NCBI GenBank assembly: GCA_027307295.1
Contig: DAHUXF010000001.1
Span: 1 to 30,368 of the forward strand
Length of the DNA: 30,368 nucleotides
Direction: 5' to 3'
Origin: Acidobacteriaceae bacterium
Lineage (GTDB): Bacteria > Acidobacteriota > Terriglobia > Terriglobales > Acidobacteriaceae
The number at the start of each line of letters is the position of its first letter. The stretch's first letter is position 1. This document shows, in pieces, positions 2,079 to 12,692 of the stretch. The notes under the pieces were generated by a model. The model ran no database searches. It was not told where the DNA came from and saw only the letters and a list, made by a program, of their open reading frames with translations. A program made the translations under genes and the position numbers.

Positions 2079-2933
2079 TTGAAGCACCACTTGCTCACGT
2101 TTGATTATGTCTTCTGGTACGCCATCATTCTTTGTCAGTTGGTGGCATGCTGGGCCGTGCTCAAACGCAGAGAATTTTTCCAACACTGGAAAGTCTTCAG
2201 CTATTACCTGCTCTATATGGCGGGTTCCTCGATGGTGGGGCTCGCCATACAGAGATTTGGCAGTCCCGGGGCCTTTATCATCACTTACTCAGTGGTGGAC
2301 TTTATTGAAGCCATCCTGCTTAACCTGGTCTTGCTGGAAATCCTGGTAAAAGTTCTGGACCCCTTTGAATCTCTGCCAGGACGGACTGTGGCCCGCTTCT
2401 GTTTCTGGGCTGTGCTGGGCATCTCCACTGCCGTAGCACTCTCTGTGATGATGCCTGCCGGGCACCGGGAGAGTTACATCGAAGTCCCGCTCACAATCGA
2501 ACGCACCATCTTTCTGGCGGACGCTTCCTTGCTCTGGATTCTGCTGGTGCAGTCAAAATCCCTGGGGATCCCCTGGAAGTCATCGGTGGCGGAGATTGCC
2601 ATTGGCTTTGTGCTGTACCTGACGGTGCAAGCCACCACGCGGTTTGTGGTGAGCTTGTATCAAAATGCCGTGCTGCGCAGCCTGGCCAGTGAAGTTGGAC
2701 AATTTGCTTATCTGATTGCCGTATTGAGTTGGATCTGGACCATCACGCATAGTGATCCGGTGGCTCCGCCGTTATCGCAGGAAGACGCAGCCAGGATGCC
2801 TAAGCTTGATCCGGATGATAGCGTTGTCCCCAAAGAGCGCATCTTTGCGGCGGTGGGCATCAAAATCAACCGGCTGGAAGAAGAATCCGCTACCGGAGAA
2901 GAAGACCAACAGACTTCCGGCATTTCCGTCTAG
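2079..2933 (+). CDS. Hypothetical 7-transmembrane protein, receptor-like, with an acidic C-terminal tail
   Basis: Seven hydrophobic segments (about aa 7-28, 39-58, 66-92, 105-125, 137-157, 170-193, 203-222). TTG start with GAAGG SD at 2070-2074. No recognisable enzymatic or output domain. Confidence 0.8.
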   Translation: MKHHLLTFDYVFWYAIILCQLVACWAVLKRREFFQHWKVFSYYLLYMAGSSMVGLAIQRFGSPGAFIITYSVVDFIEAILLNLVLLEILVKVLDPFESLPGRTVARFCFWAVLGISTAVALSVMMPAGHRESYIEVPLTIERTIFLADASLLWILLVQSKSLGIPWKSSVAEIAIGFVLYLTVQATTRFVVSLYQNAVLRSLASEVGQFAYLIAVLSWIWTITHSDPVAPPLSQEDAARMPKLDPDDSVVPKERIFAAVGIKINRLEEESATGEEDQQTSGISV

Positions 2934-3123
2934 GCCGATTCATTCCTTGCCGGGCGCGTTGTTCGCATCCGACAAAGATCTTCCACAGTGCCTCACCGCA
3001 GTCCACGATCTGCGTTCGCTTGCACCCGGGACATTGATATTCGCGCATCTCGCGACCTGTGAATGTGGTCTTCTCGATCTCCTCCATTTCGATGCCACAG
3101 TCCGGGCACGTCGTTTCAATCAT
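2890..3123 (-). CDS. Small zinc-ribbon protein (CPDC…CPGC); C-terminus possibly frameshifted
   Basis: Two CxxC pairs; the start overlaps the hpnB stop (ATGATTGA). Removing one base at 2974-2976 would end the protein at 2940 and avoid the overlap with the convergent gene. Confidence 0.6.
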   Translation of the reverse strand: MIETTCPDCGIEMEEIEKTTFTGREMREYQCPGCKRTQIVDCGEALWKIFVGCEQRARQGMNRPRRKCRKSVGLLLR

Positions 3124-4285
3124 GACGCTCCAACCTTACCACTGATTTGGCCGCCGGGTCCTGGACCCTGCCTTTCCACTGCCCTCCGCGGCCAATCCAA
3201 TACTTCCACGCCGAATGGACTGTAGCGCCCAGATAGAAAACTGCAATTCCCGGTAAAGCCAGCGCCCAAAGAGGATTCAGCCGGTACAGCCGCAACACGG
3301 GCAGATAGCTGATGGTCATCAGCACCCAGGCCGTCCCTCCCAGCGCGGCGGGTGCCAGCCGGTGGCTAAAAAACACCAGGGCTGGCGGCAGCAGATAAGT
3401 GATTGCCATGCCAGCCACGGAGAGCATCAGCAGCAACGCTGAATGATGCAGTTGATTGAAGGCGCTGCGCGAAATCATGCTGCCAATCCCGGAAAACCCG
3501 CCGTAAGGACGAATGCTTTTCGTTGTCGTGGACGCGCCCAGCCACAGGCGTCCACCGCCGTGCTTGATACGTGCAGCCAGGGCGCAATCATCAATCACTG
3601 CGCTCCGGATAGCCTCAATGCCGCCTGCCCGGTCCAGCGCTGCGGGCCGCAGCAGGATGCATCCGCCTGCCGCTCCCGCCGTCTTATGGCGTGGATTCGC
3701 AATCCAGTCTGGCGGATACAGCTTGAAGAAAAAGAAGACAAACGCCGGGATGAGCATCTTTTCGGCAAAGCTCCGGCAATGCAACTTCACCATGAATGAT
3801 GCCATGTCCCGGTTGTCCGATTGCAAAATTGAGATCAGGGTTGAAACGCTGTCAGCGGCATGAACAATGTCAGCATCAGTAAAGAGAAAGAAATCAGGAT
3901 TGGTTAAGCGCGCCAGCGCAATCCCCTGTTGCATGGCCCATAATTTACCGGACCAGCCTGCAGGCAGTGCCCGGCCTTCAATCACAGCCAGCCGGGCCGC
4001 GCCACCCATTGCGGCTGCTGACGCGCGCGCCGCTTGCGCCGTTCCGTCAGTACTGCCGTCGTCCACAAGAAAGATTTGCAGCTCATGGCTGCCGGTCTGC
4101 TGCAAGAGTGACGCAACGGTCTGCCCGACCACATCCGCTTCATTACGCGCTGGAATAATGACTGCTACCCGCGCCGCTGTAACCGCCGGGCCTGTCTGTA
4201 TGTCGCGGATTCGCCAGAACTGTCCACGAAAAAACAAGAGCGAAATCCATAGCAACAGCGTGACCAGTCCGGCGGCAATGAGCAT
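3116..4285 (-). CDS. hpnB: Hopanoid-associated glycosyltransferase, GT2 family (HpnB-like)
   Basis: N-terminal TM with RGQFWR; GT-A motifs IIPARNEA, VDDGSTDGT, GWSGKLWA, FTDAD, AAGGCIL, IDDCALA; C-terminal TMs ending GRGGQWKGR. Confidence 0.8.
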   Translation of the reverse strand: MLIAAGLVTLLLWISLLFFRGQFWRIRDIQTGPAVTAARVAVIIPARNEADVVGQTVASLLQQTGSHELQIFLVDDGSTDGTAQAARASAAAMGGAARLAVIEGRALPAGWSGKLWAMQQGIALARLTNPDFFLFTDADIVHAADSVSTLISILQSDNRDMASFMVKLHCRSFAEKMLIPAFVFFFFKLYPPDWIANPRHKTAGAAGGCILLRPAALDRAGGIEAIRSAVIDDCALAARIKHGGGRLWLGASTTTKSIRPYGGFSGIGSMISRSAFNQLHHSALLLMLSVAGMAITYLLPPALVFFSHRLAPAALGGTAWVLMTISYLPVLRLYRLNPLWALALPGIAVFYLGATVHSAWKYWIGRGGQWKGRVQDPAAKSVVRLERHD

Positions 4286-4362
4286 GCCTTATTTTACCGG
4301 GGCATCCCCGCACCCCTGGAAACAACTCACATTGTCGAGCAGACCCGGAGCACAGTGCAGAG

Positions 4363-4794
4363 ATGGCAATGGAAAGAGAAACCATGAAGGAAGCGGGCGA
4401 TTCCGGGACGCCGCTGGAGCGATACGTTAACAGCTACGTCGGCAATTTTATTCATGTATTTCTCTCCGTGCTGGCGATTCTGGTGATGGTGGGAGCTTGT
4501 ATCGCGCTGTTCCAGATTGTCCATTATGGGTTCCCGCAACTGTGGCGCGTCCCGGACGAATACCAGACACTGCATCAACTCCTGCAGAAGATTTTGCTGC
4601 TGGCGATCGCGGGCGAATTAGGCTTGCTGCTGCTCTTTCACCGTACCAGCGCGGCAGTTGAGGTGGTGATGTTCGTTATCGCAAGAAGAATGGTCGCTAC
4701 GGACGTTACTGCCTTTGACCTGCTCATGGGCTCAGCAGCGCTGGCCGTATTATTGGTGGTACGGTTTTATTTTCTGCCCGGTAAGCCCAAGTAA
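4363..4794 (+). CDS. Phosphate-starvation-inducible PsiE-family membrane protein
   Basis: 143 aa with about 4 TMs and PsiE-like pattern LLLAIAGEL…VEVVMFVIARRMV. Confidence 0.65.
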   Translation: MAMERETMKEAGDSGTPLERYVNSYVGNFIHVFLSVLAILVMVGACIALFQIVHYGFPQLWRVPDEYQTLHQLLQKILLLAIAGELGLLLLFHRTSAAVEVVMFVIARRMVATDVTAFDLLMGSAALAVLLVVRFYFLPGKPK

Positions 4795-4892
4795 CCTGTC
4801 TTTTACACTGGATGCGCTTAGTGAGATTCGCCTTCTTTGCATCGGCTGGAGCGCAAAAATCGCAGCCTGCCTTTCCATGCCGTCACGCGCAC

Positions 4893-4922
4893 AAAAAACC
4901 GGGGCCTGAAAAACGGCCCCGG
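4893..4922 (-). terminator. Intrinsic terminator for the 4944-7028 gene
   Basis: Stem CCGGGGCC (4899-4906) / GGCCCCGG (4915-4922), with A6 at 4893-4898 giving a U-tract on the minus strand. Confidence 0.8.
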
Positions 4923-4943
4923 ACAGATGGTCTAAATCATTCG

Positions 4944-7028
4944 CTATTGAACATTCAAAGCAATGTCATCAATCACGAATGAGGTTTGCAGACTGGCGTC
5001 TTCAGTGCCAATGAACTGAATCTTCACTGTCTGGCCTTTGAACTGGATTACGCTGAACGAATGCTGAGCGTAACCGGCAGCAGCATTCAGGTTGGAGAAT
5101 GTACCCAGCGTGGCCAACACAGTGTTGGAGCTGTTGAGCACCTGGACCTTAAAGGTGTCAAACGCCGTGGTAGTGGTGGTTTCAGCTGTGTCGATATGCA
5201 GCCAGAACGTCAGGGTAGCCGTGGTGGCGGTGGAAGGAATGCTGACCGTCTGGGTTGCGGAGTCAGTATGATTTGTTCCGTAGCCATCCAGCCATGCGTC
5301 CCAGTTTCCCGTATGTGGAGGTTCAGCAGAGGAGTTGTTCAACACCGCAGGCGTCAGGGTCCAGGGAGTGGCAACACCGGTTTCAAACCCACCGTTCACA
5401 ATCAGGTTTTGCGCGTTCGCCGAGGAGGTGACCGTCAGGCTGATGGTGGTGGTGTGCGTGAGGCTTCCAGAGGTGCCGGTAACTGTGACCGTCGAGGTCC
5501 CCGTTGTTGCCGTCGCGCTGGCGGTAAAAGTCAGCACGCTGGTTGAGGTTGTCGGGTTCGTGCCGAATGCCGCTGTTACTCCTGAAGGCAAGCCGGAAGC
5601 CGATAAGGTCACGCTTCCCGTGAATCCGCCCGAGGGGCTCACGGTTATCGTGCTGTTTCCGCTGGTGCCTTGCTTTACGCTCAGGCTGGAGGGCGACGCC
5701 GAGAGCGAGAAGTTCGGCGTGGCCGTGGCATTCACCGTAAGTGTGACAGCCGTGGTGTGCGTCAGCGTTCCCGATGTTCCGGTTACCGTCACCGTTGCAG
5801 TCCCGGTGGTTGCGGCGGCGCTGGCAGTGAGCGTCAACGTGCTTGAGCCAGTGGTGCTGGCAGGATTGAAGCTGGCAGTCACGCCTGAAGGCAGGCCGGA
5901 CGCCGACAAGCTTACGCTTCCTGTGAATCCGCCCGAGGGGTTCACGGTTATCGTGCTGCTTCCGCTGGTTCCCTGGGTCACGGTCAGGCTGGCGGGCGAA
6001 GCCGACAGCGTAAAGTTCGCCCCGGCCGGAGCTGGTGGGGGTAAAACGCAATTACTTACTGCATTCGAAAATTCCAACTGGATAGTGTAGGTAGTGCCAT
6101 TCGCGACATACGAACCTTGTTGGCCATTGCAGATGTCGCCAATTTCTCCGTTCGTCTGGTCCATCCAGGCGAGTGGGGCGGCAAAGGTGGTTGCAATGCC
6201 CACATCCGCGTCTGTTATCGCTTCCGACAATTCGTGGCTGGTCACTGATGTGTAATTGCCGAACACTGAGGAGTTACCGCATCCCGAAGAGCAGCCGCTG
6301 CCCGCCTGCATGTCCGGATGCACGCCGTAAAGAACATTCACCGAGTTGAAGGTATTCGATGTGGTGCCGTGATAAGCGCAGAAACCGCCGCCCACGCAGC
6401 TTGAAGACCCACCTTGTGTAATCGTTTTTCCTGGCGGGAAGTAAATCATGTAAATGGTGTTTACGTTGCCCGCTGCGTCGAGGACAGGGGCCGGAAGATG
6501 TCCCGCCGAGATCTGAGCCAGAAGCTCTGCCTGAATATTTGAATCGTCAATGGTGGAGCCGTTGTTGGCTGCCGCAGGAACAATCTGAAACAGTCCGTCA
6601 AACGTACCATTGCCAATCGTTTGGTTGGTGCCGCCCGAAGCCGGCGTGCTGTACTGGGTCAGCAACGAAGTGTATCCGCTGTTGGGGCCGGTAATATCAC
6701 TAAAGAAGTTGCCCAGAGTAGGCGAGGTAGTTCCGGCAACATGTGGATCGTAAGAACCACTTCCGTACAACACCTCCACCACGTGAACGTTTGTAATCAC
6801 CGGACCGCCGAAGTATGTCAGGTGCGCACCGGCAGGCGCCGCGAACCCTACGGGACCGCTCGTGATGGGATCTCGCCACGGCACACTGTGATGGATGCCT
6901 TGCAGCGGCGCAACAGGCAGTACCTGGGCCGAATTACCGGATGGTGCAACCTGCGCCAGAGTGGGCAGGGCTACTGAAATCAAAATGAAAAACAACAACA
7001 ACGCTGGACCGCGCAACAATCGACACAT
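4944..7028 (-). CDS. Secreted protein: Phi-1/EXORDIUM-like domain, two Ig-like Ser/Thr-rich repeats and a C-terminal beta-sandwich
   Basis: AAGGAG SD supports the ATG at 7028, followed by a signal peptide. Motifs [33 protein letters not shown]-terminal [11 protein letters not shown]…FVIDDIAL domain. Confidence 0.75.
5430..6017 (-). repeat. Intragenic tandem repeat, two units with a 303-nt (101-aa) period, encoding Ig-like domains
   Basis: Units begin [11 protein letters not shown] (6017) and [11 protein letters not shown] (5714) and share [21 protein letters not shown] and [13 protein letters not shown]. Confidence 0.9.
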
Positions 7029-7523
7029 ACTTTGCTCCTTGTGCATTTTCAAATGAACGTTCTTTCCTTGCGATTTGGGGATAAGTTGAAGCCAAAAAAC
7101 AAAAGAGGACAGTCGTTCTATTCACAATGGCTAGAGCGTCAAGCGATGCACATGTGGCCACGAGCAAGGGCCAGTTGAACTTGGCGCCAAAGGACCTATA
7201 CGGCGCTCCACTGTCGAACTGCCGTAGATACTACTGAAACGGCAGAGACTCTGAAACTGGATTTTGCTGCAGGAACCAAAAAAATATCTAAATCTTCCCG
7301 ATTCGGGACATTGGAATCTGCCAACAATTAAAAGAACGCGAACCGCGCTCACTTGTAATTGAAGTGATTTGAATTCATGTGGAATCGTCCAAGGATCATT
7401 CGCTACGCATGGCTCTGGGTGGAAGACAAATTTCTTTCGTGATTTCTTTAACGATCACGATTACGCAGTGCTTTTAAATTTCATAAATGAAAACCGCGCG
7501 CAGCGGCCCAAACTGAAATTCCC

Positions 7524-7558
7524 AAAAAGCAAAACCTGCCAAGGCTGGCAGGCTTTGC
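7524..7558 (-). terminator. Intrinsic terminator downstream of the TonB-dependent receptor
   Basis: Stem CCTGCCA (7535-7541) / TGGCAGG (7546-7552), extended by GCAAA/TTTGC, with an A-run at 7524-7528. Confidence 0.7.
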
Positions 7559-7599: not shown

Positions 7600-10476
7600 T
7601 CATTTTGTGCGTTCTCTTGTTGGCGTCCAGCGTAACCCAACAGAAACGGTGCGGCTATAGTATTCACGCTGCACTGGGAACTGTTCGCTGCCATTGTAAA
7701 ACCCAAACGTTTCATTGGTGAGGTTGAGCATGGAGACAATCGCCTGAACGCCGTGGACGCGAGGGACCCAGTAGCTGACCTGTGCGTCCACTTGCGTGTG
7801 AGGATAGAGATATTGGTCTCCGTTCGGACCTTTGACTCCGCCCGCAGCGCCATCCTGGAACTGGTAAGCGAAGATGTTAGCGTCATTATGCGTGAGTCCC
7901 ATGCGCGCCGACACACCTTTTTTGTCATAGGTGTAATCGAAGTTCCAGTTGTTCGGCGCCTGGCGCGGCAACGCAGCAGTGCCAGTTCTGCCGAATCCCA
8001 AAGGAAAACTGGCGCTGGATGAAGTGTAACTGTAGTTCGCTCTGATTCCCGAACCATTCAAAAATCCCGGAAGGAATGTAAGCCGTTGCTGCCAGGCCAT
8101 TTCGATTCCCGTAAGATGGGCATGAGGGCCATTGATGGGAGCAGACTGCAGTAATCCGGCGAACTGACCCGATGTGATGGGAGTTATCACGCCCTCATAA
8201 ATGGGATCGGTCAGATATTTATAGAATACGCCGCCCTGAATCATGCCCACGTTCTTGAGATAACGCTCCAGCAGAAGATCGAAATTCTGTGCATGGGTTG
8301 GTTGCAGGTTGGAGTTTCCGGCTGTGACCGCTGGCTGGCCGGCTGCAACGGTGGGATCAAACTTGACGAAGGGAGGCAGGTCGCCAAAGTTTGGCCGTGA
8401 GATGCCCATGCCGTAAGCCGCACGCAAAATCGTGTCAGAGCCAAAACGGTATTGGTACTGCACGCTGGGTAGAACATCAACGTAACTGTTTTCGCCGGGG
8501 ACTTGCACCTGCGATCCCGGCACAAAATTGCGTCCATTTACCTGGATCTGGTTCCCGACGAAGGAATCCTGCGTTCCTTCCACGCGCACCCCCGCCTGCA
8601 AACGGGACTGGCCAAAGTTGATGGTGTTCATCACATAACCGGCGGAGACGCGCTCATCCGTAATAAAGTCTGATGGGATCGTGCGGGCCAGGTCACTCAG
8701 CGCGTTTACGCCGGAATTAAACGCTCCGCGGTTTGCGTTGAACAAAGCAATGATCTTGTTGTAATCCGTGGTTGGGCCATACGTTCCGTATGCGCCGAAG
8801 TAATAGTTCGGATTGGTGAATGAACTCAGAACAGAGCTCATGAAGAAATCCTGGGTTGCACTGAACGTCTGCTGGACGTTCAGTTGTGACTTGTGTGCGT
8901 CGCGCACCTTGGCTCCAAGCTCGATCGTGCTGAAATGCGAGCCGGCAAAGTAAGTCCGGGCAACGGAGATGGCCCCTGTAACGTCCCGCTCGAAAGTATG
9001 GTCATCGCCGGTGGACAAGCGGCTGATAGTGTATAGGTTTGGGTCAAAGATGTTGGCGTTTAGGGCTGTGAGCCGGGGAACGAATGGATTGGTGTTATTG
9101 AGTGCAAATTGAACGGTGCCGTCCCTGAGCGCGTTAGGAACCGCAGGATCACTGGGTGCAGGACTAAAACTGGTCGAGGGAAAAAAGCCGGTAAAACGCG
9201 CCTGGCCCAGGGAAAGTTCATAATTGACGAGCGTTGATCCCTTGTCATATCTTCCCCCGGCAGTCGTGCTGAACAAACGCTGCGACGGCTTGCGGGTAAC
9301 GTGCGCGAAGCTTGAACTTCCGTCCGGATTCGTCAGCGTGGCAGTGGCGAATGAACCAACGGAGGGCGAATAAATCCAGTCCTGGCCACCGTCTTTGAAC
9401 TGTGAAAAGAGACCATGCAGATAGAGGCTGGCGGCTGCACTGAGCCGGTAGTCCATGGCGCCGCCAAAACCGTAACGTGTGCGGTCATACCAGTACTGCC
9501 GTTGGTCATAACCATTCGGCCCTAAAAAAGTTGCGCCACTGTTGAGCGTGTTCACGCCCTGGCTGGGCTCCACGTCATCAATGCCGCGGCCATTCCAGTC
9601 ATAACTGCCGCCCACCAGTATGCCAAAACGATGGTCTGCGCCAAACCGCTGGCCCATGGTTGCGCTGAATTGATCGGCCGTGCGTCCACTGGCAATAGGT
9701 GTGTAGCCTCCCATCCCGAGAACGGTCAGATAAGGCTGGTCCGCGGGGCTCTTGGTGACCAGATTCACGGATCCGCCGATGGCATCGCCTTCCTGATTCG
9801 CGGAAAGGGTCTTACTGATCTCAACCGATTCCACCAGATCGGCGGGAATGGCATCCAGTTTCACATTGCGGACACTCTCTGGAGACGGCAAGTGCATGCC
9901 ATTCACAGTCACATTGCTCAAGCGCGGCTCAGTTCCGCGAATCTGCACATATTTGCCTTCGCCCTCGTCCCGCTCCAGGGAGACGCTGGGCAACCGGCCC
10001 ACGGCGTCGGCGATATTGGTGTTGGGCAAGCTGACAATCACGTCATAAGGCAGCACCTGCAGAACATTGTCGGCTGTGCGCTCCCGGTTGAGCGCCTCTT
10101 CCTCTCCGCGTTGCCGGTCCGCTCTTACTACCACTTCTTCTCTCACTGTTTCGATCTGCAACATAGCGTCCATCTGCGTGACCTCTCCGGCATTCACCGT
10201 GACCTCTGTCGAGTACGGCGCAAATCCGAAGTACGACACGGTAATGGTGTACTTGCCCGGCGTGAGTCCGTAGAAAGTGAATTGGCCTTGCGCGTCAGTA
10301 GATGTGACCTGCTCCCTGGGCTGCACCCGCACGCGTGCCCCCTGGAGAATGCCGCGGTTCTTGTCAGTAACATGACCGATGATGGTTGCTTTGCGTTCCT
10401 GCGCGCGTGATGAAACGATCAATGTAGTGACGGCGAGAATTGCTAAGACAATTGACCTGCAAAAATTGGGTCGCAT
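7600..10476 (-). CDS. TonB-dependent receptor with an N-terminal carboxypeptidase-regulatory-like domain
   Basis: Signal peptide; plug motifs NIADAVGRLPSVSL, YVQIRGTEPRLSNVTVNG, DAIGGSVNLVTK; barrel motifs RPNFGDL, GNSNLQP. GGAGG SD. Confidence 0.92.
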   Translation of the reverse strand: MRPNFCRSIVLAILAVTTLIVSSRAQERKATIIGHVTDKNRGILQGARVRVQPREQVTSTDAQGQFTFYGLTPGKYTITVSYFGFAPYSTEVTVNAGEVTQMDAMLQIETVREEVVVRADRQRGEEEALNRERTADNVLQVLPYDVIVSLPNTNIADAVGRLPSVSLERDEGEGKYVQIRGTEPRLSNVTVNGMHLPSPESVRNVKLDAIPADLVESVEISKTLSANQEGDAIGGSVNLVTKSPADQPYLTVLGMGGYTPIASGRTADQFSATMGQRFGADHRFGILVGGSYDWNGRGIDDVEPSQGVNTLNSGATFLGPNGYDQRQYWYDRTRYGFGGAMDYRLSAAASLYLHGLFSQFKDGGQDWIYSPSVGSFATATLTNPDGSSSFAHVTRKPSQRLFSTTAGGRYDKGSTLVNYELSLGQARFTGFFPSTSFSPAPSDPAVPNALRDGTVQFALNNTNPFVPRLTALNANIFDPNLYTISRLSTGDDHTFERDVTGAISVARTYFAGSHFSTIELGAKVRDAHKSQLNVQQTFSATQDFFMSSVLSSFTNPNYYFGAYGTYGPTTDYNKIIALFNANRGAFNSGVNALSDLARTIPSDFITDERVSAGYVMNTINFGQSRLQAGVRVEGTQDSFVGNQIQVNGRNFVPGSQVQVPGENSYVDVLPSVQYQYRFGSDTILRAAYGMGISRPNFGDLPPFVKFDPTVAAGQPAVTAGNSNLQPTHAQNFDLLLERYLKNVGMIQGGVFYKYLTDPIYEGVITPITSGQFAGLLQSAPINGPHAHLTGIEMAWQQRLTFLPGFLNGSGIRANYSYTSSSASFPLGFGRTGTAALPRQAPNNWNFDYTYDKKGVSARMGLTHNDANIFAYQFQDGAAGGVKGPNGDQYLYPHTQVDAQVSYWVPRVHGVQAIVSMLNLTNETFGFYNGSEQFPVQREYYSRTVSVGLRWTPTRERTK

Positions 10477-10505
10477 GGAACCCTCCGAAAATTTACGAAC
10501 CGGGA

Positions 10506-10559
10506 ATCGTAGTGGGGGCTTGTGAAGAAATTGTGGCTGTCTGGTTAACGCGAGATTAA
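10506..10559 (-). promoter_or_regulatory. Pho-box-like (OmpR-family) activated promoter of the TonB receptor
   Basis: On the minus strand, TTAAT, TTAAC, GCCAC and TTCAC occur at an exact 11-bp period (10559, 10548, 10537, 10526), followed after 10 nt by the -10-like TACGAT (10511-10506). Confidence 0.65.
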
Positions 10560-10704
10560 AATCGTTGGCGCGTCCAGCACTTTCTGGCAGCCATTAGGAG
10601 CGGCGCGGAATTGGTTGTAATGACGAGCTTCTGCTCAATTCCATCCCCTGATTTTCACAAGCCTGCTACAGAGCAGAGGCACTTCGCAGAGCCATAAGTT
10701 AAAC

Positions 10705-10740
10705 AGGGGCGGCGGGAGGTCGGACGCCGCGCCCCTTTTT
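10705..10740 (+). terminator. Intrinsic terminator-like hairpin within the divergent intergenic region
   Basis: AGGGGC-GGCG / CGCC-(gc)-GCCCCT stem followed by a T-run. Confidence 0.55.
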
Positions 10741-10946
10741 CGCGTGGCCACGTTCTCTACCACGGAAAACCCCAGCTTTTTACGAAAATTCCAGGCTTTT
10801 TTTGACTAAATCCCCTCGACAAAGGCCACAGTGAAGTCTAAGCTGGCTGCCGTAAAATTCCGGTCAATGGGGTGTGAATCTTGCGTAAATTCAGGATTGC
10901 GCCGCTGCCGCTCAAAAATCCTTGTCCGCAAGCTTGCAATGAATAT

Positions 10947-10991
10947 TTTTCATTGAATATTCACCTGTTATTCACACGGTTGCTGTGTAAT
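10947..10991 (+). promoter_or_regulatory. Pho-box-like (OmpR-family) activated promoter of the phosphoesterase
   Basis: TTTTCAT (10947), TATTCAC (10958) and TATTCAC (10969) at an 11-bp period, followed after 10 nt by TGTAAT (10986-10991). Confidence 0.7.
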
Positions 10992-11048
10992 GCAGCGGCA
11001 GATATTTCAAGACTTTCTGTGGTTTGAAAGAAAATTAAGGAGAGACAT

Positions 11049-12692
11049 ATGCAATTTCGTGGCGCCCGCCCAGGGCTGGTACTGGTGTTTTTTGCGGTCA
11101 TCGCGTTGCTGGCTGCAAATACAGCCAGGGCCGAAGGCAATCCTCACAGGGCCAAACACATCATCGTCATCATGCAGGAGAACCATTCTTTCGATAACTA
11201 TTTTGGCGCGTTAGCGTATGCGCCGGGCAGTCCGTATCACACACCGCGGCGTGGAGACGGCGACGACCGTGACGACCGCACCGGCGGCTGCCGCCAGAAT
11301 GACCACTCCTGTGTCGACGGCCTGACCTGCCGCGTGGACCACGCCGGCAATTTCACCTGCCTCAACTCCAACCGTGATGACAATGGCAGCACAGTTTTTG
11401 CTTTCCACGATTCCCGGCGTTGCGTGATTCCGGATCTGGACCATGGCTGGGCCAGCACCCATCGTGAAGCCAACTTCAACCATCCGAATGACACGCTTTT
11501 TCAGGGGTTCATGGATGGCTTTGTTCGAATCAATGACCAAACCGAGCAACTCGACATGGGCGTTGAGAACGCGACCGACGACCAGACCATGGCGTTCTAC
11601 AACCAGAATGAAATTCCTTTCTACTATGATCTGGCGCAGAAGTTTGCCATGAATGACCGCTACTTCTCGTCGGTCCTAGGGCCAACGTTCCCCAATCGCT
11701 CTTACCTGATGGCCGCCACATCCTTTGGCCACCTGACCACCAGTGACAGTTTTCCGCCTCCGGGAAGCGGCGGCTACAAGCCCATCACCGGCACCATTTT
11801 TGACCTGATGGAAAAACATGGCGTCACCTGGGCTGACTATTTCCAGGATGTTCCGCAGGGGGGCAGCTTCCGTTCCTTCCCATCGCCTCTTGATCCGCAT
11901 TTCTTGCCGCTTCCCGTCTTCCTGGGACAGCTGGCCGGCAACCCGGCATTACCGCCGTTGCCGCAAGTTTCATTCGTTGACCCCAACCTGGGCGTGCTGG
12001 GCATTACGAAAGAAAACGATGAGCATCCGCCGACCGACATTCAGCGCGGCCAGGCATTCGTCTCGTTGGTGTTGAACTCAATCCGCAACAGCCCATTCTG
12101 GAAAGACAGCATCGTTATCTTTACCTACGACGAGCACGGCGGCTTTTATGATCACGTTCTTCCGCCCCGCGCACGCCAGGGCCACGCTCCTAATCCTGAC
12201 GGCATTAACCCCGGACAGTGCGCTGATCTTTCCAATCCGCCGCTGAGCCTGCAACCCGGCAAAGGCGCGGAATGCTCCACTAACCTGCTGAGCAAGACGG
12301 ACACCACTACGGCGGACGCAGCCGACCTGTGCCCGGAGTTTGCGCTCAATCCCACCGGGCCTTTCCCGGCGGCGTGCGCCAACTTTGATCAATACGGCAT
12401 CCGCGTTCCGTTCATCGTGATCTCGCCCTTCGCCAAGCAAAGCTATGTCTCTCACACTGTAGGCGACCACACTTCCATCCTGGCGCTGATTGAGAAAATC
12501 TTCATGACCACCAGTTCCGGCGACCGCGATGGCGACGATGAAGACGACAGGACTGCGCGTCCTCACCTGACCAAACGCGATCAGCCTGCCAGCACGCTGG
12601 AAGACATGTTTGATTTCGATGGTGCGCCATCACTCAATACCAAACTGGGTGTGGCCCTGCCTCCCGCGCAGGATTGCACACCATCCAAGTAG
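11049..12692 (+). CDS. Secreted phospholipase C / acid phosphatase (phosphoesterase family)
   Basis: Signal peptide; motifs KHIIVIMQENHSFDNYFG, DLDH, GPTFPNR, DEHPP, TYDEHGGFYDHV, GIRVPFIVISPF, DHTSIL. AAGGAG SD. Confidence 0.92.
   Translation: MQFRGARPGLVLVFFAVIALLAANTARAEGNPHRAKHIIVIMQENHSFDNYFGALAYAPGSPYHTPRRGDGDDRDDRTGGCRQNDHSCVDGLTCRVDHAGNFTCLNSNRDDNGSTVFAFHDSRRCVIPDLDHGWASTHREANFNHPNDTLFQGFMDGFVRINDQTEQLDMGVENATDDQTMAFYNQNEIPFYYDLAQKFAMNDRYFSSVLGPTFPNRSYLMAATSFGHLTTSDSFPPPGSGGYKPITGTIFDLMEKHGVTWADYFQDVPQGGSFRSFPSPLDPHFLPLPVFLGQLAGNPALPPLPQVSFVDPNLGVLGITKENDEHPPTDIQRGQAFVSLVLNSIRNSPFWKDSIVIFTYDEHGGFYDHVLPPRARQGHAPNPDGINPGQCADLSNPPLSLQPGKGAECSTNLLSKTDTTTADAADLCPEFALNPTGPFPAACANFDQYGIRVPFIVISPFAKQSYVSHTVGDHTSILALIEKIFMTTSSGDRDGDDEDDRTARPHLTKRDQPASTLEDMFDFDGAPSLNTKLGVALPPAQDCTPSK

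Follow-up and report, generated by a model that had tools for sequence, protein, structure and literature searches.

Two divergent promoters in an Acidobacteriaceae genome appear to be Pho-box promoters dependent on PhoB, and the genes behind them, for a TonB-dependent receptor (TBDR) and a secreted phosphoesterase, would be co-induced as members of the Pho regulon. We assign this reading a probability of roughly 0.88. The 11-bp-period repeats in front of both genes are most likely lineage-specific Pho boxes, which phosphorylated PhoB (PhoB~P) would bind; PhoB binding, activation, start sites, phosphate dependence and substrates are what we infer from the DNA sequence. The candidate PhoB motif put forward in an earlier, sequence-only reading of this DNA was upheld: the pattern of repeats plus spacing precedes phosphorus genes in the genome, with 14 matches where about 1.3 were expected.

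Two divergent promoters share one geometry

The window, by which we mean the whole 30,368-nt stretch of DNA analysed, corresponds to contig C111 in the fragmented MAG of an uncultured Terriglobia bacterium (852 contigs, 81% complete, 55% G+C, 3.7 Mb). The 958-aa TBDR is encoded on the minus strand (7600..10476) and the 547-aa phosphoesterase-family protein on the plus strand (11049..12692), with 572 bp between the divergent genes (10477-11048). Direct reading confirmed the coordinates of the repeats that had been described earlier. On the minus strand, four units including a degenerate GCCAC form the array TTAAT-N6-TTAAC-N6-GCCAC-N6-TTCAC (10522..10559; TTAAT 10559-10555, TTAAC 10548-10544, GCCAC 10537-10533, TTCAC 10526-10522), which would correspond to two tandem Pho boxes. 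Three units make up the plus-strand array, TTCAT-N6-TTCAC-N6-TTCAC (10949..10975; TTCAT 10949-10953, TTCAC 10960-10964, TTCAC 10971-10975). The last unit had been placed exactly 10 nt before a -10 hexamer in both promoters, and it is found there on direct reading, before TACGAT (10506..10511, minus strand) and TGTAAT (10986..10991, plus strand); the 10-nt spacing is also kept in orthologs. No sigma-70 consensus promoter with a -35 element was found in the divergent intergenic region, as expected for activator-dependent promoters. Both genes have leaders with a Shine-Dalgarno sequence, GGAGGG followed by ATG for the TBDR (10486-10481, minus strand) and AGGAG for the phosphoesterase (11038-11042, plus strand).

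The TBDR combines the Pfam domains CarboxypepD_reg, Plug and beta-barrel (TonB_dep_Rec), and it belongs to the TonB-Xanth-Caul subfamily (NCBIfam TIGR01782, 419 bits against a cut-off of 310), of which Plug and 22-strand barrel domains are expected. A strong intrinsic terminator with a 13-bp stem and a T-run lies 3' of the gene (7529..7558, minus strand), which is therefore monocistronic. The next downstream ORF (4944-7052, minus strand; 702 aa) has no Pfam match and a weak match to the NTTRR-F1 domain, and about 550 bp with several terminator-like hairpins separate it from the TBDR.

The phosphoesterase has a Sec-type signal peptide and matches PF04185 (Pfam, 239 bits). It does not reach the cut-off of the phosphocholine-specific phospholipase C model TIGR03396 (150.5 bits against 580) or of the Burkholderia-type acid phosphatase model TIGR03397 (102.7 bits against 363), and, judged by these family models, only general PF04185 membership holds. 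The closest solved structures are phospholipases C and Francisella AcpA (2d1g).

Between the two promoters, the central ~380 bp (10560-10940) hold no repeats found elsewhere in the genome and show no similarity in relatives, and an Rfam scan of the intergenic region at E<=1 returned no match. A G+C-rich hairpin followed by TTTTT lies mid-intergenic (10706-10740, plus strand); it resembles a plus-strand intrinsic terminator with no gene in front, and its fold z-score is only -1.6. It may have been left over from an upstream gene since lost, or mark where a small RNA ends; such an RNA could start near a TGTAAT at about 10616.

Register and spacing are conserved among orthologs

Nine TBDR orthologs were found, with 63-100% identity, and in the promoters of all nine, four slots repeat every 11 bp and a hexamer follows after exactly 10 nt (TACGAT, TAATAT, TAAGAT, TAGGAT or TAACCT). 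The degenerate slot is always the third, as it is in the window. The highest four-unit score of the whole assembly belongs to the TBDR promoter (18/20); next come an array on contig C210, one at C209:3412 before a second PF04185 paralog, and one at a phoU-like gene. A GTT trinucleotide 6-8 nt downstream of the -10 is conserved in eight of these nine promoters, for example TACGATtcccgGTT (window 10498-10505, minus strand, and ortholog loci L081-L088); it may represent start-site or discriminator context.

For the phosphoesterase, orthologs came from 15 same-genus genomes (68-86% identity), and 14 of their loci included the gene start. With a slightly relaxed unit pattern, exactly one two-unit site lies within 200 nt upstream in each of these 14 loci and in the window. 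Aligned on this site, the 14 orthologs and the window give the consensus aaTTTTCAY-N6-TTCACC, a third slot, and then cTccTGTnTAAT. Units 1 and 2 of the window correspond to the pair that is strongly conserved in all 14 aligned orthologs. The third slot matches the unit perfectly in the window (TTCAC), and most relatives have a degenerate form there (TTCGC, TTCTC, TTAGC or no unit). The TnTAAT block cTccTGTnTAAT follows the third slot at exactly 10 nt in 22 of 47 distinct ortholog promoters, and with one additional base in 5 more.

The pattern marks pst and pho genes

We scanned the 3.7-Mb genome for the full geometry, in which two strict units are followed by 0-2 further slots, N10 and a -10-like hexamer, and obtained the 14 matches, against 1-2 in each of six Markov-3 simulated genomes. 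Most of them are at phosphorus genes. Three fall in the divergent intergenic region of the window; others precede pstS directly after phoB-phoR (C192:4397), pstC (C164:3935, minus strand), a phoB paralog (C12:4235) and a phoU-like gene (C12:5127). On C210, two overlapping matches lie before a 517-aa protein without known family, and single matches lie before a glyoxalase-family gene (C45:6345, plus strand), before an amino-acid permease gene (C365) and, on C24, in intergenic DNA that has no called gene downstream. Two of the 14 are inside coding sequence. A two-unit PWM built from the phosphoesterase promoters alone was rejected as too loose, with many of its top matches intragenic or before unrelated genes (GAF-SpoIIE, OPT, another TBDR); the scan gained its specificity because the N10 spacer and the -10 hexamer were added to the two-unit model.

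The sequence-only reading had proposed that the motif should also be found at pstS and at pho promoters, and it recurs at pstS, pstC, the phoB paralog and the phoU-like gene. On C192, phoB (1726-2502) and phoR (2499-4211; HAMP-PAS-HisKA-HATPase) are followed by a terminator, the repeats and pstS; here the promoter reads TTAAC-N6-TTAAC, 10 nt, TACGGT, immediately before the pstS start. The rest of pstSCAB-phoU is on C164, which ends inside pstS. A pstS paralog on C46 was left uncounted, its upstream GTAAC/GTTAC repeats being out of register. Across the genus, repeats ending 10 nt before a TAnnnT hexamer were found at pstS in all 26 usable genomes, in two styles, TTTAACA-N4-TTTAACA and a four-unit TTCAT/TTCAC/TTAAT/GTAAC array. 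In two relatives with 100% estimated completeness, the pattern matches pstS, pstC, the phoB paralog, two phoU-like genes and a PhoA alkaline phosphatase, and further a glyoxalase-family gene as on C45, a Metallophos phosphoesterase and an OlsB-like GNAT acyltransferase. Taken together, these targets have the composition of a Pho regulon.

Several arrangements came to light alongside these matches. The promoter between pstS and pstC is conserved (C164:3935, minus strand; G061:C79:103501; G026:C1:707622), and with a Pho box at this place pstCAB-phoU can be transcribed separately from pstS. On C12 (4235-6719), two PhoU-like genes come after an orphan PhoB paralog (4276-5052), with Pho boxes at the paralog and at the first PhoU-like gene; the same cluster occurs at G061:C14:142740-144469 with a Pho box at all three genes, and the paralog has its own Pho box at G026:C2:1284614 as well. 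This cluster is predicted to be a second, autoregulated phosphate-signalling module beside the canonical phoBR-pstSCAB-phoU. At the phoB paralog, pstC, glyoxalase, Metallophos and GNAT genes (C12:4235, C164:3935; L276, L279, L281, L288, L290), the start codon comes only 6-9 nt after the -10, which implies leaderless mRNAs, unlike the two window genes with their Shine-Dalgarno leaders.

The glyoxalase/bleomycin-resistance/dioxygenase-family gene encodes two domains and has a Pho box in two genomes (C45:6345, plus strand; G061:C80:77807). On C210 (9122-11008, minus strand), the three-unit array with the second-best four-slot score lies ~270 nt upstream of the 517-aa protein, which has no match in Pfam or NCBIfam and whose language-model features resemble five-bladed beta-propeller glycosidase-like proteins. 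For two PF04185 paralogs on C841, the 500 bp in front of the gene gave no convincing array. Ornithine lipids, the products of OlsB-type enzymes, take the place of phospholipids in some bacteria under phosphate starvation. The OlsB-like GNAT gene (PF13444, FeeM-like) at G026:C2:2143281 (L281:1539-2423) stands directly behind a Pho box, and to judge by this position the genus may make ornithine or amino-acid lipids, which are free of phosphorus, under the control of phosphate.

Transporters of this clade recur beside phosphoesterases

Conservation of the gene pair had been named as a further check, and here the outcome was negative. We surveyed 15 loci from the genus, 80 on genome contigs and 80 from metagenomes, and none had a TBDR within 1.5-4.5 kb of the phosphoesterase ortholog. 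Since the adjacency is not conserved and the orthologs often occur alone, each gene is best described as a portable, self-contained Pho module.

The relatives of the TBDR nevertheless keep similar company. In genome G061, the TBDR ortholog is flanked on one side by a PF04185 paralog and on the other by a PhoA gene with its own Pho box, and in G004 and G033 a Metallophos gene directly follows the ortholog, the two Metallophos genes being 66% identical. At five loci of a paralog clade with 44-52% identity (G010, G017, G026 twice, G036), the upstream divergent ORF is of one family, identified as a Metallophos phosphoesterase in G010. At the four loci where both promoters were examined (G017, the two of G026, and G036), a Pho box precedes the TBDR paralog and another the divergent gene; these four share the twin divergent Pho-box architecture of the window with a different enzyme. 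Nearly all TBDR orthologs and 44-52% paralogs have multi-unit Pho arrays, and their enzyme neighbours come from three unrelated families, PF04185, PhoA (PF00245) and Metallophos (PF00149). This habit of adjoining phosphoesterases supports a role of the transporter in phosphorus acquisition. We tentatively propose that the window TBDR is one of a Terriglobia clade whose TonB-dependent transporters are dedicated to acquiring phosphorus, and we give this slightly less than even odds on the neighbourhoods and promoters described here.

In light of these neighbourhoods, the view of the two genes as a co-regulated organophosphate-scavenging unit stands in part. The functional class is borne out by the recurrence of clade TBDRs beside phosphoesterases; the term 'unit' is not, because the pair is unconserved and each gene forms a monocistronic Pho module. 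Similarly, the hint that the sequence-only reading drew for the substrate of the transporter gained a link to phosphorus, and as a pointer to what is transported it would still be a weak one.

Alternative explanations

Periodic TTMAY pentamers could in principle arise by chance, all the more in an intergenic region whose A+T content exceeds that of the genome (49% against 55% G+C). The counts do not agree with such an origin. TTMAY-N6-TTMAY occurs three times in the whole 30-kb window, counting both strands, compared to 0.72 expected, and all three matches sit in the divergent intergenic region, each toward its gene. The three-unit pattern occurs once in the window and in none of 100 dinucleotide-preserving shuffles, and strict two-unit sites reach 3.9-6.8 per kb in the promoters of the orthologs, compared to 0.01-0.14 per kb outside the promoters of these loci. 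With register and spacing conserved among orthologs and a genome-wide enrichment of about 10-fold in the geometry scan, the chance reading is effectively refuted. A different doubt concerns the layout: the sites may be real, but the two genes may have been brought together by a chimeric assembly or by a recent rearrangement that means nothing for their function, which would make the twin arrangement incidental. The absence of the pair from all surveyed loci fits this explanation, as do the flanking genes, which have synteny with no relative, the central 380 bp of the intergenic region, which match nothing elsewhere, and the loose co-occurrence of the orthologs (5 genomes with both genes, 10 with the phosphoesterase ortholog only). 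Yet both window promoters are intact and correctly oriented, and other TBDRs of the clade also stand beside phosphoesterases, with PF04185 and PhoA neighbours in G061, a Metallophos gene in G004 and G033, and a divergent Metallophos gene at the five paralog loci, where the four examined have their own Pho boxes. Such pairings therefore appear to be favoured, and we regard a meaningless adjacency as unlikely, with perhaps one chance in four.

The identity of the binder needs separate consideration, since the repeats might be read by an OmpR-family regulator other than the canonical PhoB encoded beside phoR and pstS. The most plausible candidate would be the orphan PhoB paralog on C12 that precedes the two phoU-like genes. 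This paralog and the PhoB of C192 are 64% identical with near-identical recognition helices, they score equally on TIGR02154 (239 bits each, both below the cut-off), and the paralog carries its own Pho box. Against a different regulator stands the occurrence of the motif at pstS, immediately downstream of phoB-phoR, and an unrelated OmpR-family protein would leave the pstS, pstC, phoU and PhoA targets unexplained. We consider this explanation improbable, at less than one chance in ten. Within the PhoB reading, the C192 PhoB, the C12 paralog or both may bind at the window promoters; the two would probably read the same sequence, which would make the physiological signal, phosphate, the same either way.

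Discussion

Under the PhoB reading, we propose that phosphate limitation leads PhoR to phosphorylate PhoB, and that PhoB~P dimers bind head-to-tail on pairs of 11-bp units with the core TT[C/A]A[C/T]. The promoter-proximal protomer would occupy the place of the -35, on a unit ending 10 nt before the -10, and recruit a sigma-70-type RNA polymerase. With a transcription start about 7 nt after the -10, the 5' bases of the units would lie at -60, -49, -38 and -27 in the TBDR promoter and at -49, -38 and -27 in the phosphoesterase promoter. The two promoters, ~400 bp apart, would act independently, one of them driving the monocistronic TonB-dependent outer-membrane transporter and the other the secreted phosphoesterase of the PLC/AcpA family.

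This scheme follows that of E. coli, where 10 bp separate the proximal repeat from the -10 downstream of it, strong promoters have several boxes, and phoB is autoregulated. The pstS and phoA promoters of E. coli likewise have tandem direct repeats with an 11-bp period, in an array that overlaps the -35 or stands in its place. PhoB binds tandem direct repeats over the -35 and contacts RNA polymerase there (PMC3348028). The differences lie in the phylum, Acidobacteriota, in the sequence of the box, and in the 3-4-unit arrays with their systematically weak slot. The E. coli consensus CTGTCAT-N4-CTGTCAT is not matched by the window motif, whose core is TTMAY, that is TT(C/A)A(C/T) in place of CTGTCAT; only the T-CA-Y part resembles GTCAT, which argues for a lineage-specific variant. 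We found no Pho box for Acidobacteriota in the published literature that we searched.

The genes behind the two promoters also have counterparts in known Pho regulons. PF04185, the family of the window phosphoesterase, includes Pseudomonas PlcH/PlcN, which are induced by phosphate starvation, and Francisella AcpA. The window protein, Sec-exported and 547 aa long, differs from these in scoring far below the PC-PLC and acid phosphatase cut-offs. In Caulobacter crescentus, the PhoB regulon comprises PstSCAB, several TonB-dependent receptors and secreted phosphatases or phosphodiesterases (PMC11208175). The window TBDR falls in the TonB-Xanth-Caul subfamily TIGR01782; phylum and box sequence differ, and the likeness of the individual TBDRs is put at the level of the subfamily. 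In Flavobacterium, phosphate depletion induces TonB-dependent transporters of the outer membrane along with phosphatases (PMC8115612); unlike these PusCD-like systems, the window TBDR has no SusD-like partner gene next to it.

The mechanism proposed here is canonical and of the textbook kind; what the locus adds is a usable Pho-box motif for Acidobacteria of the soil that are uncultured. Acidobacteriota rank with the most abundant bacteria in soil, and almost nothing is known of their gene regulation. The rule that emerges asks for TT[C/A]A[C/T] units repeating every 11 bp and for a spacer of 10 nt between the last of them and a TAnnnT-type -10. It selects phosphorus genes at a low level of noise, and it could be used for annotating the Pho regulon in Terriglobia MAGs and for reading soil metatranscriptomes for phosphorus stress. 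It also flags one TBDR clade and several unannotated genes as candidates for phosphorus acquisition. If the proposed role of this clade is true, its transporters would constitute an undescribed outer-membrane uptake route in abundant soil Acidobacteria, for organophosphate or for a phosphatase cofactor.
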